In this document: positions 5,073 to 43,029 of the stretch, piece after piece
Layout of the letters: the number at the start of each line of letters is the position of its first letter
How positions within the stretch are numbered: position 1 is the first letter of the stretch
Virus record (IMG/VR): IMGVR_UViG_3300031088_000776
DNA length: 63,658 bases
Origin: a virus
Lineage: Duplodnaviria; Heunggongvirae; Uroviricota; Caudoviricetes
Direction: 5' to 3' (one strand)
Made by a program: the position numbers and the translations under genes
Notes under the pieces: model-generated
The model's database searches: none
What the model was told of the DNA's origin: nothing
Seen by the model: the letters and a program-made list of their open reading frames with translations, nothing else

Positions 5073-5230
5073 CCTAAGCGGTCTATAGAGTCAATTTCAC
5101 TGCTTAGGGTATAGTCATACAGTAGACAGCATTTTCTGTGAAAACTGTCATTTTACTGCAAAAGACCACCTAGTTAGCTTTGATAGCCTCGGGTCTAACT
5201 AGGTGGTCTTAGTAGCGCAGTTTTCGCTAC
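5073..5230 (+). repeat. Dispersed hairpin repeat, copy 1
   Basis: TTAGGGTATAGTCATACAGTAGACAG...AAGACCACCTAGTTAG(5162-5177) loop CTAACTAGGTGGTCTT(5195-5210) AGTAGCGCAGTTTTCGCT. Confidence 0.9.
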
Positions 5231-5314
5231 AATTCTATAACAGTAAAAATACTCCCCTAAACCTCATTTTTAAAAATATTCTGAAACTTAAAATAAAATA
5301 CAGTCTCAAATAGG

Positions 5315-6622
5315 TTACCTCTGCGATAACGACAACCAAAAACCAGCAACCCAATTTCTCACTGACTTAGCGTTCTCACCCTGCTCGTCTCCATAGAAGA
5401 ATCGCCGGTCACCTCTACCAGGATAGAACAATCCTTCTGTAGCAACTGGTAGTAATTCTTGGCCACCGCGTAAGCCCATATAACCATTCGGGAATCCTTT
5501 ATGAACAATCTCATGAGTCTCCCAATCAAAAGTTTTATCACCAGCAATCGAATTAAACATTTCTGACTCTTCATTCTTGACTATATTAGAGCGCTGCTGA
5601 ACTGCATGGCAGTACTCATGGAGCAACACTGACTTCTGCTCTTCTTCATCATGGTATATTTTACTTCCTATTTCAGAACCACGAATAAAGTAAGAGTCTG
5701 TAGTCGAATACATTGGTTTATCCAAAACATGCTTAACCCCATTCAAATAAACTTCTGAAGTTTCACTAATCTTCTTAAAACCTTTCTTTTGAAGAGGCTG
5801 ACCAACCCAAACTCTTTTAAGATTAGTGCGGTTATCTCCATCCTTGATTACTGCACTAAAGCTAGTACCCGAAGAATTTAACTCTGAAGCAAACATGCTT
5901 TCGATAGGCATTAGACTACCATCAGGAGCATCATCTTGAAAGTTGAAGGAGTTTATTTCACTAGTTGCTGACTTTCTAAACTCAAGATTCTTTATCGCAT
6001 GGTAACCGTCACGACTCTTGTTGTTCTTACTAACAGTCTTTGTTAGTATTGGGGCGTCATCAAGGCTTGCTTTAACATTATTCGGGAGTATCGCTACAGC
6101 TTCATTAAGCTGCTTTTTGAATCTTCCCTCAACATGTTTTGCAGGATCCCCATTTCTCACGAGCGAACTAAATATCTCACGATTAACTTTCTGGATTTCA
6201 GCAAACTCTTCATTAGTCAAGTTTTTAGAATCTATATTAAAAGATAATCGTGACTGCAATTCTCCATCGAACTTCTCGCCAATAAGAATAAGATCATCCT
6301 TACTCGGTCTTTCTTTAGCCGCTAAACTCAAGATTTCTTCTTTAAACTTTTTAAACTTCGAATCAACAGTATCCTCGTTTAATACCCCATCTTTTGAGCG
6401 GTTTGAATCTACCCTAGACTCGTTTCTTTTTGGCGTCTTCTTTAACCCTGTAAGAGCATTTGATTTATTCTCGCTACTTAATCTTCGCTCTACTTCTTTA
6501 ATCCCTTCATCTCTATTCGTAAAGTGATCTGATGATCCGAATCGGCATGTTTTCTTTTTAGCGTTGCAAGGTCGAACATCACCTGCGGAATTAATGTGGT
6601 ATTTGCTAGTTTCATCACTCAA
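5315..6622 (-). CDS. His/Cys-leader protein with C-terminal zincin (HExxH) metallopeptidase-like domain
   Basis: N-terminus YHINSAGDVRPCNAKKKTCRFGSSDHF; C-terminus LLHEYCHAVQ...YMG...ELLPVATEGLF. Confidence 0.7.
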   Translation of the reverse strand: MSDETSKYHINSAGDVRPCNAKKKTCRFGSSDHFTNRDEGIKEVERRLSSENKSNALTGLKKTPKRNESRVDSNRSKDGVLNEDTVDSKFKKFKEEILSLAAKERPSKDDLILIGEKFDGELQSRLSFNIDSKNLTNEEFAEIQKVNREIFSSLVRNGDPAKHVEGRFKKQLNEAVAILPNNVKASLDDAPILTKTVSKNNKSRDGYHAIKNLEFRKSATSEINSFNFQDDAPDGSLMPIESMFASELNSSGTSFSAVIKDGDNRTNLKRVWVGQPLQKKGFKKISETSEVYLNGVKHVLDKPMYSTTDSYFIRGSEIGSKIYHDEEEQKSVLLHEYCHAVQQRSNIVKNEESEMFNSIAGDKTFDWETHEIVHKGFPNGYMGLRGGQELLPVATEGLFYPGRGDRRFFYGDEQGENAKSVRNWVAGFWLSLSQR

Positions 6623-6712
6623 TGTATTTCTACCTTTATTTTAGAAGTTTAAGGTATTTTCTAAAGATTTGTTTAAAGTATAATCTTTATTTAGAGACTA
6701 AAGATCTCGCTA

Positions 6713-6756
6713 AAAATCGCAGTTAACCAAACGAGAGAAAAGTTAACTGCGATTTT
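6713..6756 (-). terminator. Terminator-like hairpin downstream of NlpC/P60 gene
   Basis: AAAATCGCAGTTAAC...GTTAACTGCGATTTT, 15 bp perfect inverted repeat. Confidence 0.7.
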
Positions 6757-6799
6757 AGTCTATGTGACTAGAATGACTGATTCTAGTTAGTTTTTAATA

Positions 6800-40443: not shown

Positions 40444-40605
40444 TTTTCTGTTCCTTACTTTTTGTGTTTCTTACTCACGGCTGCGAGTAACTTTTTAAAA
40501 TGATAATTTTTAAGTTGACCTCTATAACATATATTTATTTCCTGGTCAAATGTATAGTACCAACAGTTTTTATTTTTTGAAAGTTTTTTCAAAATTTTTC
40601 AAAAT

Positions 40606-42318
40606 TTATTTTTCGGGTTGTGGCCAAGAGTTAGGGATAGTCACTTCTTCAGGTAAAGCAGGTGCTTTAGGTTCAGCAGGCTTCTCTTGGTCAATGATCG
40701 CCGGGCGCACTGGTTCTGTATCGCAACCAGAAGGTCTATCCGGAATCTCGATACCTTCGAATGTTTCTTCAGGTTCGGGAGTCTCAGACGGACTAGGCGA
40801 TGGACTAGGCGATGGACTTTCAGAAGCTTCTGGGTCATCACTAGGCGTTGGTGTCGGCGTCGGGGTCGGAGTAGCCTCCGCCTTCTCACGTTCACGTTCA
40901 GCCTTTTTCTTCAAGAATTCTTGACGATTCTTCTCATTTTCATTGAATTTATCTCGCCATTCTTCTTCCCATTTTTCAAGATCTTCTTTAGCTAACTCAC
41001 ATTTCCGAACTTCTTCTTCATAACCCTCAAGAGCTAAAGCTTTGCGATCATCAAATGTTCTCCAACTATTATGTTGCTCTACATAGTTATACCAAGTATT
41101 TCTGACTTTAGCTCGTTCACTGCGAAGCCAATCCCACTTTTCATGGACTTTATTAGTATCTGAAACAAACTTATTCCAATTGTCCGCCTGAGGCATTACA
41201 GCCATAACAGATAAAGCCCAATTGTTCTTTCTAGAGATATAGTCTGTAGCTTTAGAATCTACATAATTCTGGACTTCTTGAAGTTCGTTAAATTTATCAT
41301 CAGCTAACTTTTTCTTATCGTAAGCCGGTGAAGCTTGCGAGGACCAATCCCAACCACAACCAGGACCTTCCACATCCTCAATAAGATAAACAGCATCATC
41401 TTCAAATTTACTTACTGTAGCTATGCTATTTGGGATAGTAGGCTTTTCGACATTTGCTGGCAATTCTGGAAAAGTATCTGGTAATGGAGATTCAGGCTTA
41501 AGAGTATTCTCATTCTTAATCATATTCATTTTAACTACTGTAGGTTCTGGAAGATTTCCATAATCCACATTTGTATCTACAGTTCTTGTTTCTGAATAAC
41601 CATCATAAGATTCTTTATCATAATAGAAGCTTCTACTAGAATCTTCAGCGCTGGGATTCAGCGATAAGCATTTAGATTCTTTAAGGGTGCTTTCAGCATT
41701 TTTAACATAGAAGTCAAGTAGTGAGTCTGCTGAACCCTCCTTAGTATAGGTAACTCCAATGATAGAGTCACCCACATTCATTAAGAAACCACCCGGGAAT
41801 TTAAGAATTTTAGTTTGACTTTTCTTATCGCTTGTTACTCCAGAGAAACATGTTTTAAGTTTTTCTTCATACTTCTTAAATTGAGTTGCAGACTGACCAG
41901 CACCGTAAACCTGTACACGGGTCTCAACGCCTGACCCTTTAGCAACATGTGTTGACAAAAGACTGGAAGGTGTTTCCTGAAGTGTGTTGCAAACTTTAGT
42001 GTTAATTGGAGATTGGGCTTTAGTGCTCTCTGAAACCTCCCACGTCTTTACTGTAGGTGGTTTCATTTTAACCATTTTAGCCCCCCAGCTTTTACCTGCG
42101 AAACTAGCTGGCTGTATATCTTGATATGGAGAAATTACTTCAGGTTCGGCTATAGCATTCTGATAGCTATTATAACCTGAACCAATGAATGATCCAATTC
42201 CTATTACAGCTGCTGTGCCGAAGGCTACATATACTAAAGGCTTGTCAAGCAGCCAAGCAATACGTGGTGTCTTGACAGAGCTGCTTTCTTTATATTCTTC
42301 AACAGTCTTTTTCTTCAT
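40606..42318 (-). CDS. Membrane-anchored exported protein with coiled coil and Pro/Thr/Ser-rich tail
   Basis: N-terminal TM, several Cys, TPTPTPTPTPS and PSPSPSPS linkers. Confidence 0.75.
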   Translation of the reverse strand: MKKKTVEEYKESSSVKTPRIAWLLDKPLVYVAFGTAAVIGIGSFIGSGYNSYQNAIAEPEVISPYQDIQPASFAGKSWGAKMVKMKPPTVKTWEVSESTKAQSPINTKVCNTLQETPSSLLSTHVAKGSGVETRVQVYGAGQSATQFKKYEEKLKTCFSGVTSDKKSQTKILKFPGGFLMNVGDSIIGVTYTKEGSADSLLDFYVKNAESTLKESKCLSLNPSAEDSSRSFYYDKESYDGYSETRTVDTNVDYGNLPEPTVVKMNMIKNENTLKPESPLPDTFPELPANVEKPTIPNSIATVSKFEDDAVYLIEDVEGPGCGWDWSSQASPAYDKKKLADDKFNELQEVQNYVDSKATDYISRKNNWALSVMAVMPQADNWNKFVSDTNKVHEKWDWLRSERAKVRNTWYNYVEQHNSWRTFDDRKALALEGYEEEVRKCELAKEDLEKWEEEWRDKFNENEKNRQEFLKKKAEREREKAEATPTPTPTPTPSDDPEASESPSPSPSPSPSETPEPEETFEGIEIPDRPSGCDTEPVRPAIIDQEKPAEPKAPALPEEVTIPNSWPQPEK

Positions 42319-42444
42319 TTATTCACTACTTCCTTGACCTCTAAAAACTCAAAAAGAGAGGGCGGTAAGCCCTCCCTTCAAGAGTACTCACTATTCTGTC
42401 ATAAGATGATTGTACCAACTGTTTTTAGAATAGTTTACTTATTT

Positions 42445-42780
42445 TTAAGATGTTTCAAGAATTCCTTCCTCAAGTAAAGCCTTTTGAATTTCTCGTTTTT
42501 CTTTTGCTCGAACTTGGCCTCTGAGTTTAGAGTTATCTACACCTCGTCTTTTAAGTCGCATAATTCGCTCATAGACTAGAGTTTTCTCTTCTTGCGAATC
42601 GCTATTATCAAGTAAGTGATTCTTTTGAATATAATCTTTGAATTTTAGAATTGTCCTATCTACTCGCTTTTCGTTTCTGGCTTTTGCTTTCATGTTTCTA
42701 TACATTGGGCATCTCTCCTTCTGAAAAGAATATTGCGATTTATTTTTCCACTTTACCTTTCGGTTAAGTGATGTAGTCAT
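42445..42780 (-). CDS. Small basic hypothetical protein (start probably internal, near 42705-42712)
   Basis: Lys/Arg-rich; an AGGAG SD lies inside the called ORF. Confidence 0.5.
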   Translation of the reverse strand: MTTSLNRKVKWKNKSQYSFQKERCPMYRNMKAKARNEKRVDRTILKFKDYIQKNHLLDNSDSQEEKTLVYERIMRLKRRGVDNSKLRGQVRAKEKREIQKALLEEGILETS

Positions 42781-42904
42781 ATTACCAAGTCTTTCTATGT
42801 TTTCTCTTGAAGTCTTTTTCTTTAGGTTAAAAAGCTCTCATTTTAATCTAATTTATCTCTTACTGAAGTGTAGATAGCGCAGCAAGGCTACTGAAAAATG
42901 GCTC

Positions 42905-43029
42905 TTAGGGTGTAGTCATACAGTAGACAGCATTTACTGTCAAAACTGTCATTTCGCTGCAAAAGACCACCTAGTTAGACCCGAGACTATAACGGCTAAC
43001 TAGACGCGCTTAGTAGCGCAGTTTTCGCT
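42905..43029 (+). repeat. Dispersed hairpin repeat, copy 4 (loop inverted, right arm altered)
   Basis: Loop AGACCCGAGACTATAACGGCT (42977-42997) is the reverse complement of the copy 2 loop at 19/21 positions. Confidence 0.9.

Follow-up and report, generated by a model that had tools for sequence, protein, structure and literature searches.

An intergenic hairpin repeat of a giant phage-like element as a candidate terminator-centred regulatory cassette

The virus record IMGVR_UViG_3300031088_000776 (IMG/VR; Caudoviricetes) carries a family of dispersed hairpin repeats, analysed here in a stretch of 63,658 nucleotides (the window) and in DNA adjoining it. The repeat may be an intergenic, terminator-centred regulatory cassette of a giant phage-like element, with an RNA hairpin at transcript ends as its core, a reading that we hold with roughly even confidence. 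The hairpin would stop the flanking transcripts or stabilise their 3' ends, in both directions at convergent junctions, while a conserved box and phased A/T tracts would provide a promoter-like or factor-binding signal. In co-directional settings, the box may restart transcription toward the next gene. The copies would be spread and homogenised through homologous recombination and gene conversion, and as a side effect small accessory genes would be shuffled in variable regions. An earlier sequence-only reading of the window had offered a non-autonomous mobile unit, a structured non-coding RNA or a recombination site as explanations. A terminator hairpin at the transcript end lies outside these three options and, judged from the sequence, appears to be the best-supported role.

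The window was placed on the 697,643-bp contig k141_1324127 (ENA ERZ27247443), where the record coordinate equals the window coordinate plus 223,908. Beyond the window, ~37 kb of DNA from the source sample was available, comprising ~14 kb of the source contig (record 209794-223908) and a 22.9-kb Logan contig bearing nrdE. The genes seen on the element include rIIB, nrdE, free-standing endonuclease genes, a PIF1 helicase, SSB and a VirB6-like protein. A combination of alignment, repeat detection and nhmmer profiling identified four full copies (c1-c4) and one truncated copy in the window, where nhmmer returned no weaker additional copies. The stem arm AAGACCACCTAGTT occurs seven times in the window against 0.45 expected from shuffles, as pairs at 5162/5197, 22473/22508 and 33462/33497 and as a lone arm at 42963. 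Likewise, four matches to the 21-nt box GGGTATAGTCATACAGTAGAC were counted when one mismatch was tolerated, against 0 expected. The four full copies and one partial copy counted in the sequence-only reading thus stand, as does its observation that they are always intergenic; the right end of c2 touches the stop codon of the open reading frame (ORF) 22557-23189. Two further full copies lie to the left of the window, c0 at 1.1 kb (L003 12950-13122) and cA at 11.4 kb (L003 2623-2760). The copies of the window are 81-91% identical to each other and the repeat unit measures 125-175 bp. The copies in the window and their parts are as follows.

4366..4415, plus strand: truncated copy of 50 nt, with a type-b left flank and the first ~12 nt of the box (CTTAAGGTATAG); 90% identical to c2 22376-22425 and positioned 116-165 nt upstream of a SpoU-type methylase gene, 3681-4250 (minus strand)
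5066-5245, plus strand: c1, whole copy
5066..5099, plus strand: c1, type-a left flank, common to c0, c3 and L013
5100..5131, plus strand: c1, conserved box CTTAGGGTATAGTCATACAGTAGACAGCATTTT, holding the palindrome GTAT-N4-ATAC and the motif ACAGTAGACAG
5132..5161, plus strand: c1, variable region with A4/T4 tracts every ~10 bp, CTG/CAG motifs and a minus-strand -35-like TTCACA
5162..5210, no strand assigned: c1, main hairpin, a 14-bp perfect stem AAGACCACCTAGTT/AACTAGGTGGTCTT with a 21-nt insert that extends the helix
5211..5245, plus strand: c1, right module with the mini-hairpin GTAGCG-CAGTTTT-CGCTAC, 70 nt from the stop codon of a 435-aa gene, 5315-6622 (minus strand)
22376..22562, plus strand: c2, with type-b flank 22376-22413, box 22418-22438, hairpin 22473-22521 and a cA-type right module; between genes 21883-22317 (minus strand) and 22557-23189 (minus strand)
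33421..33605, minus strand: c3, with right module 33421-33461, hairpin 33462-33510, box 33545-33565 and type-a flank 33566-33605; between the convergent genes 31708-33237 (plus strand) and 33623-34396 (minus strand)
42868..43044, plus strand: c4, with a diverged type-b flank, box 42908-42928 (GGGTGTAG variant), hairpin 42963-43011 and right module; between genes 42445-42780 (minus strand) and 43240-45333 (minus strand)

The case for a transcript-end signal starts with the hairpin itself. The stem has a folding free energy (dG) of -24 to -28 kcal/mol in five copies (-26 to -28 in c1). On the repeat's minus strand, each of the six copies has TTTT or TTTTT immediately after GGTGGTC, while on the plus strand the stem is followed by AGTAGCGC. 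The 8-nt tail past the stem contains 3-5 T on the minus strand versus one T on the plus strand in five copies; in c1, TCTT continues as TTGCAG on the minus strand and as AGTAGC on the plus strand. By sequence, a putative intrinsic terminator, that is, a stable GC-containing stem followed by a U-run, can therefore be read on the minus strand of six out of six copies and not on the plus strand. Five of the six copies are preceded, 22-200 nt upstream, by the end of a gene read on the repeat's minus strand. The hairpin of c2 begins 38 nt past the upstream stop codon and is followed on the sense strand by TCTTTTTGCG. Further, no rival terminator-like hairpin is found on the relevant strand between the upstream stop codons and c3 or c4. 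A standard terminator scan omits the repeat's hairpin because the loop exceeds the 3-8 nt that the scan allows.

The gene context is in line with this placement. Among the seven sites that were fully seen, three lie between convergent genes (c0, c1 and c3), two are minus/minus (c2 and c4), two are plus/plus (cA and the site shared by the contigs L012 and L014 of two distant relatives), and none is divergent, each copy having at least one gene read into it. Copies occupy two of the four convergent junctions of the window versus two of ~60 others, as counted with greedy gene calls. A simpler rule, under which the sense strand would in every case be the minus strand, was rejected, because cA and L012/L014 stand in plus/plus settings. 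Flank type follows context as well. The type-a flank begins 22-29 nt past the stop codon of a gene read on the repeat's plus strand, and every type-b flank is located upstream of a gene on the repeat's minus strand (c2, c4, the truncated copy, L006 and L009), with start codons 94-120 nt away in c2 and c4.

The manner in which the stem decays adds to this picture. L012 and L014 stand in a plus/plus context, and four of their stem pairs are G.U when read from the plus strand and would be A.C on the other; the minus strand of L012 folds poorly. In c4, which has a minus/minus context, 12 of 14 pairs (two of them G.U) form on the sense (minus) strand versus 10 of 14 on the plus strand, with a dG of -15.1 kcal/mol on the minus strand versus -11.1 on the plus strand. 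All six one-sided transitions keep pairing in the sense RNA, the events not all being independent. Stems with full Watson-Crick pairing occur at the convergent sites, at which both strands would be transcribed into the hairpin, and also in c2 and cA. The asymmetric decay is suggestive of pairing being kept at the RNA level in the sense transcript, and the one-sided wobbles would place the constraint on the stem in RNA rather than in duplex DNA. For the structured non-coding RNA proposed earlier, this means that the hairpin part holds, since the hairpin behaves as an RNA structure. The remainder does not, as the region between box and hairpin shows no conserved fold or pairing register in alignments. 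Moreover, Rfam returned no match at gathering thresholds over the whole window, where the best chance-level matches (E<=10) scored 18-19 bits against cut-offs of 47-85.

Other hairpins were seen near the repeat or at its sites. nrdE possesses its own canonical terminator (AATAGGGACACGAT ... ATCGTGTCCCTATT and a T-run) at L003 2504-2560, directly before cA, so that cA is not needed for ending nrdE transcription. In L012, a different hairpin with a 14-bp stem (GGAGCGCAGCGACT/AGTCGCTGCGCTCC) follows the homologue of the 435-aa gene at 11426-11482, in place of the repeat. The window contains a second hairpin at 4604-4661, with a 14-bp perfect stem ACAGCACAATAGCT/AGCTATTGTGCTGT, a 30-nt loop and an unrelated sequence, just upstream of a promoter-like site TGTATAAT and a 51-aa gene, 4714-4869. 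This hairpin was rejected as a family member, being unique in the DNA examined.

The hairpin is one part of a mosaic assembled from one of two types of left flank, the box, the phased A/T tracts, the 14-bp stem with its 21-nt insert and one of two types of right module. c0, c1 and c3 carry the type-a flank (CGGTCTATAGAGTC); type b (AGAACTGTGAGACTGCAGCC) is found in c2, in the truncated copy and, diverged, in c4. The exchange of left flanks described in the sequence-only reading, with type a in c1 and c3 and type b in c2 and the fragment, is borne out. The flank word CCTAAGC or CCTAAGA pairs with the core start GCTTAGG or TCTTAGG in c0, c1 and c2, in c1 as a 7-bp stem of CCTAAGC with GCTTAGG around a 22-nt loop, and imperfectly in c3 and L013. 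This pair differs on both sides between the flank types; it was read directly, the flank types being out of register in the MAFFT alignment. About 30 nt after the box vary among copies, with A4/T4 tracts every ~10 bp and CAG/CTG words retained. In the main hairpin, the 21 nt of the insert partly self-pair, giving an irregular helix of ~20 bp with a 5-nt tip, and an outer inverted repeat AAAACTG ... CAGTTTT surrounds the hairpin in six of six copies. The right modules of c0, c1, c3 and c4 belong to one type and those of cA and c2 to the other, one type having the mini-hairpin. c4 departs from the other copies in carrying the 21-nt insert in inverted orientation and in having 4 of 14 positions changed in its 3' arm. 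The motif ACAGTA(G/A)(A/G)C(A/G)G(C/T)ATT is retained even in relatives at 42-45% protein identity; in L012 and L014 the survivors are this motif, A-runs and the hairpin only.

The box and the A/T region after it resemble a promoter on the minus strand, where all six copies have TTNACA, a spacing of 17-18 nt and TATGAC, with the A/T tracts at the would-be UP-element position. The corresponding hexamer in the relative from run SRR29026073 is TATAAT or TACAAT. However, neither the minus-strand nor the plus-strand hexamer is retained in L012 or L014, and a consensus promoter scan flagged neither strand's candidate. The case for a promoter in this region is thus of modest strength, and a factor-binding site is a serious rival to it. 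An E. coli-type LexA box was considered and rejected; its left half alone matches, and the host is not of the right type.

Several observations weigh against a terminator-centred cassette. The insert measures 21 nt and the stem is much longer than in ordinary intrinsic terminators. Only two U follow the stem on the plus strand, which leaves termination in the plus sense unaccounted for. The most conserved motif outside the hairpin, ACAGTAGACAG, is unnecessary for a terminator, and neither the box nor the phased A/T region is required for termination. As to promoter function, the minus-strand -10 TATGAC lacks the critical last T, and the plus-strand -10-like TATAGT (TATCAT in SRR29026073) points into the hairpin. 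Finally, the statistics are small: there are six full and two distant copies, and p is ~0.02 each for gene context and wobble, with events that are not all independent.

As one alternative, the box and the symmetric arms may bind a DNA-binding factor encoded by the element, such as a regulator, a stoperator-like roadblock or a nucleoid organiser. The hairpin would then be secondary and the copies would form a genome-wide regulon. The centre of GTAT-N4-ATAC is uniform within each genome (AGTC here, CATT in SRR29026073), as co-evolution would give, and both ACAGTAGACAG and the repeated CAGTTTT/AAAACTG are conserved past structural need. The ~10-bp phasing of the A/T tracts and the conservation of the 21-nt insert in both orientations point the same way. 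Yet GTAT-N4-ATAC is gone in L012 and L014 while the hairpin persists, the one-sided wobbles speak for a stem constrained as RNA, and no candidate factor was identified. On balance, we regard such a regulon as possible but unlikely.

A second alternative keeps the RNA and changes its role, the long irregular hairpin being an RNA-processing or stabilising site, either a site for RNase III or a 3' protective hairpin in polycistronic transcripts. The structure comprises at least 20 irregular base pairs once the paired insert and the AAAACUG/CAGUUUU helix outside it are counted, which resembles phage RNase III sites; it would function in either orientation, and the U-run is short. The enrichment at convergent junctions, where there is no polycistronic transcript to process, and the consistency of the T-run on one strand count against it. 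This alternative seems improbable to us.

Whether the repeat moves can be judged from its sites in relatives. The c3 and c4 sites are occupied in X2, X3 and X5. The c3 site is also occupied in ERR12057305, with the same site-specific variant GTCTAGGG, a shared variant that implies vertical inheritance at c3. In SRR29026073, whose proteins are 60-93% identical, the c4, c1 and SpoU-upstream sites are occupied (L006, L011 and L009, respectively). Two relatives whose homologue of the 435-aa protein is only 42-45% identical carry a diverged yet significant copy behind the acetyltransferase gene (nhmmer E 4e-5 and 4e-8). Sites shared across such diverged relatives indicate that the family is old and its sites stable, which argues against a recently active transposon. 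The comparison of filled with empty sites, which had been suggested as a check, yielded no empty site, all comparable sites being occupied in relatives.

A non-autonomous element, similar to a miniature inverted-repeat transposable element (MITE) or to repetitive extragenic palindromic (REP) sequences and mobilised in trans by an enzyme from elsewhere in the 0.7-Mb genome, is consequently very unlikely. The sequence-only reading had named such a mobile unit among its explanations, even though it saw no transposase or target-site duplication. Both absences were reproduced, that of a transposase among the ORFs tested in the window, and the mobile unit itself was not supported. Neither terminal inverted repeats nor target-site duplications nor sharp termini were seen, the ends being fuzzy and module-dependent. 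Further, no transposase, HUH or REP-associated tyrosine transposase (RAYT) gene and no recombinase was found among the ORFs tested in the ~100 kb examined, nor any PF01797-type match. The dozens of dispersed copies in both orientations, the palindromic TCTATAGA-like word near both ends of type-a copies and an apparent copy number that varies among relatives would all suit a mobile element, and the inspection for an enzyme covered ~15% of the genome. Against this stand the occupancy of comparable sites down to 60% protein identity and the vertical inheritance of the site-specific variant.

A small-RNA gene in each copy, in which a plus-strand box promoter drives an RNA of ~100 nt with a variable 5' seed and a 3' hairpin, is the least probable of these alternatives, for although the -10-like hexamer on the plus strand keeps its second-position A and last T in both genomes despite two changes, c2, cA and L006 have a -35-like AAGACA or TAGACA 18 nt upstream, and the region after the box varies among copies, there is no plus-strand U-tail past the hairpin, the -35 is missing in type-a copies and in c4 (where the -10 also lacks the second-position A), the hexamer is not conserved in L012 and L014, and Rfam offers no relative.

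Exchange between copies is borne out by several observations. Two orthologous sites of SRR29026073 have the box as GGTATCATT(A/G)TACAGTAGACAG, and all source copies have GGGTATAGTCATACAGTAGACAG; the box core is TATCATT(A/G)TAC there versus TATAGTCATAC in all source copies. Such uniformity within a genome amounts to concerted evolution, for which either gene conversion or co-evolution with a factor that reads the box could be responsible. The orthologous c1 site of the same relative carries a right module of the other type. At the SpoU site of the source genome, the copy stops after CTTAAGGTATAG; ~690 bp with two small genes and a type-a flank follow, and c1 resumes at CTTAGGGTATAG. In SRR29026073, flank and box run on at the SpoU-upstream site until the contig breaks (L009). 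This arrangement is consistent with a single ancestral copy that was split by an insert, its contiguity being unproven because the relative's contigs break inside the repeat.

Gene content and order also change beside the copies. A contig of X3 joins 31550 to 33443 through 38 other letters, which means that the 509-aa gene beside c3 is absent in X3. This gene (31708-33237) and the 270-aa gene before it (30739-31551) are tandem paralogues with near-identical C-termini. A block of nine genes at 5315-14687, with the signal-peptidase gene and the 435-aa gene as its outermost members, is inverted relative to L012, L014 and a 16.8-kb JGI contig, in all of which the acetyltransferase gene, the nine-gene block and the Metallophos-to-SNF2 genes run in one direction. 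The left breakpoint of this 9.4-kb inversion abuts c1, and the right one is the strand-switch region 14688-15509. An inverted second copy at the right breakpoint was sought and rejected, as nhmmer gave only E ~9 at 14750-14781 and 15221-15284. No gene gain or loss with repeats on both sides was seen in the relatives compared. Collectively, recombination-driven shuffling of accessory genes as a by-product of the repeat appears partly supported. Of the recombination site that the sequence-only reading had in mind, this by-product is the part that stands, on the strength of module exchange, concerted evolution of the box, the ~690-bp insert, the missing gene and the inversion breakpoint.

The repeat is abundant. 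Copy number was estimated by aligning the Logan contigs of four runs to window 23500-43400. In the source run, the summed box depth was 1523, from 17 contigs, against a single-copy depth of ~40, which suggests ~17-40 copies in the source genome and more in relatives; the ratio of box depth is ~80-100 fold in X2 (~98% identical) and in X3 and X5 (~92-93% identical). Each copy interrupts the Logan contigs. For X3 and X5, low word shares had raised the idea of a short common piece, which was rejected since both are full-length relatives at ~92-93% identity. Related elements (~92-99% identity) were seen in runs labelled phyllosphere, dairy and 'organism A', and runs labelled skin, bird, food-fermentation and feces metagenome shared a few words; none of the runs listed was an RNA run. 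In public collections, blastn with the repeat and megablast with 50 kb of the window gave no match among plasmids and phages, and two exact box patterns gave none among genome, viral and metagenome contig collections.

The copies are unevenly distributed. Six copies fall within 56 of 78 kb, in a region of small accessory genes, homing endonucleases and His/Cys-leader genes. To the left of nrdE, 22.9 kb are unbroken and free of the repeat, as are 20.9 kb to the right of c4, and both stretches are long operons of conserved genes. c1 adjoins the 435-aa gene 5315-6622 and c3 the 257-aa gene 33623-34396, both with a His/Cys N-terminal module, in agreement with the sequence-only reading, which had placed these two copies beside His/Cys-leader genes. 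To the left of the window, isolated pieces of the right module border a homing-endonuclease cassette. Other contigs of the source run and of relatives join a repeat copy to sequence resembling 36757-36802 and 37316-37344, two stretches that lie inside a DUF4379 endonuclease gene, 36553-37737. From the sequence of these joints, other repeat copies seem, like cA, to neighbour paralogous homing-endonuclease genes. The repeat-free right third of the window contains a gene for an HU-like DNA-binding protein (56451-56909; PF00216) and one for a 995-aa protein with a TrbL/VirB6 domain (48816-51803).

Giant phage-like genomes are known mostly as gene lists, and how they are divided into transcription units and how genes turn over in their variable regions remain largely obscure. 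The repeat offers a handle on both, being an abundant, putative marker of transcript ends at the boundaries of accessory genes and located at points of rearrangement and of gene gain or loss. It is retained at the same sites despite protein divergence to 42-70% identity and homogenised within each genome. What is new here is the gene-context rule, the link between flank type and context, the strand-specific wobbles, the deep site occupancy and the concerted evolution of the box. If the box is read by a factor encoded by the element, the family would amount to a genome-wide control circuit; if not, it would be a larger analogue of known phage and bacterial repeats, those termed PeSL in T4 and REP, in a new host range. 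A broader and rather speculative proposal, which we consider unlikely, is that the family is a lineage-wide cis-signal of giant phage-like elements, read by a dedicated element-encoded factor, with ACAGTAGACAG(C/T)ATTTT and the box co-evolving, and both bounding and helping to assemble stand-alone accessory 'effector' cassettes that include the His/Cys-tagged genes. If true, it would represent an integrase-free analogue of cassette systems, with termination or antitermination, RNA processing and roadblock repression as examples of what the factor might do.

Several known classes of element can be set aside. A MITE or a transposon derived from an insertion sequence (IS) would bring terminal inverted repeats, target-site duplications or insertion polymorphism, none of which was found at the compared sites. 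Unlike IS200/IS605 ends, the unit has one hairpin and no gene inside, and no TnpA or TnpB Pfam match occurs nearby. As for the attC sites of integrons, the stem is perfect without bulges, GTT/AAC stand at the loop end in reverse order, both orientations occur, and the window has no integrase. CRISPR-like and retron-like readings were rejected, as neither spacers nor a reverse transcriptase was seen. The inverted inter-arm segment of c4 recalls the 'flip-flop' micro-inversions of plastid non-coding DNA; however, this is the mutational behaviour of any long inverted repeat and does not account for the function or spread of the family.

Bidirectional intrinsic terminators share with the repeat a stable hairpin with an A-run on one side and a T-rich other side, the convergent placement and the pairing kept on the transcribed strand. 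The repeat differs in its much longer stem and insert, in having a good U-run on one strand only, and in being set in ~100 bp of additional conserved sequence that is present in dozens of copies. REP sequences and bacterial interspersed mosaic elements (BIMEs) have been linked with the stabilisation of transcript ends and with termination. Similar to these, the repeat consists of dispersed extragenic palindromes built as a mosaic of few interchangeable modules, at gene 3' ends and between convergent genes. It lacks, however, a 5' GTAG-palindrome unit of 20-40 nt, its GTAG standing 3' of the stem; its copies are solitary rather than in alternating arrays, no RAYT was seen among the window ORFs tested, and the carrier is phage-like rather than chromosomal.

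The nearest parallel is provided by the PeSL (promoter early stem-loop) cassettes of T4-type phages, repeated terminator/promoter composites in variable regions through which recombination shuffles small genes (PMC2839356, PMC4122927). The differences are considerable. The repeat measures ~125-175 bp and is unrelated in sequence, three of its six copies lie between convergent genes, and it occurs in both orientations to transcription, cA and L012/L014 being opposite to c2 and c4. The unit ends without a Shine-Dalgarno sequence and start codon, a strong sigma-70 promoter is not demonstrable in it, and its stem is a 14-bp perfect palindrome with an invertible 21-nt insert. Further, it resides on a ~0.7-Mb element of a presumably Gram-positive host and not in a T4-like myovirus. 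Nevertheless, both are repeated intergenic composites (~100 bp in PeSL) of a stem-loop terminator with promoter-like and AT-rich parts, and both occur mainly in the variable parts of a large phage genome of virulent type, amid small accessory genes. The stem-loop terminator or attenuator that defines PeSL would have its counterpart in the structure, T-run and sense-strand wobbles of the repeat. Likewise, copies recombine, and genes gained or lost between relatives adjoin them. PeSL cassettes, of which the repeat is not a member, are thus the known system closest to it in logic.

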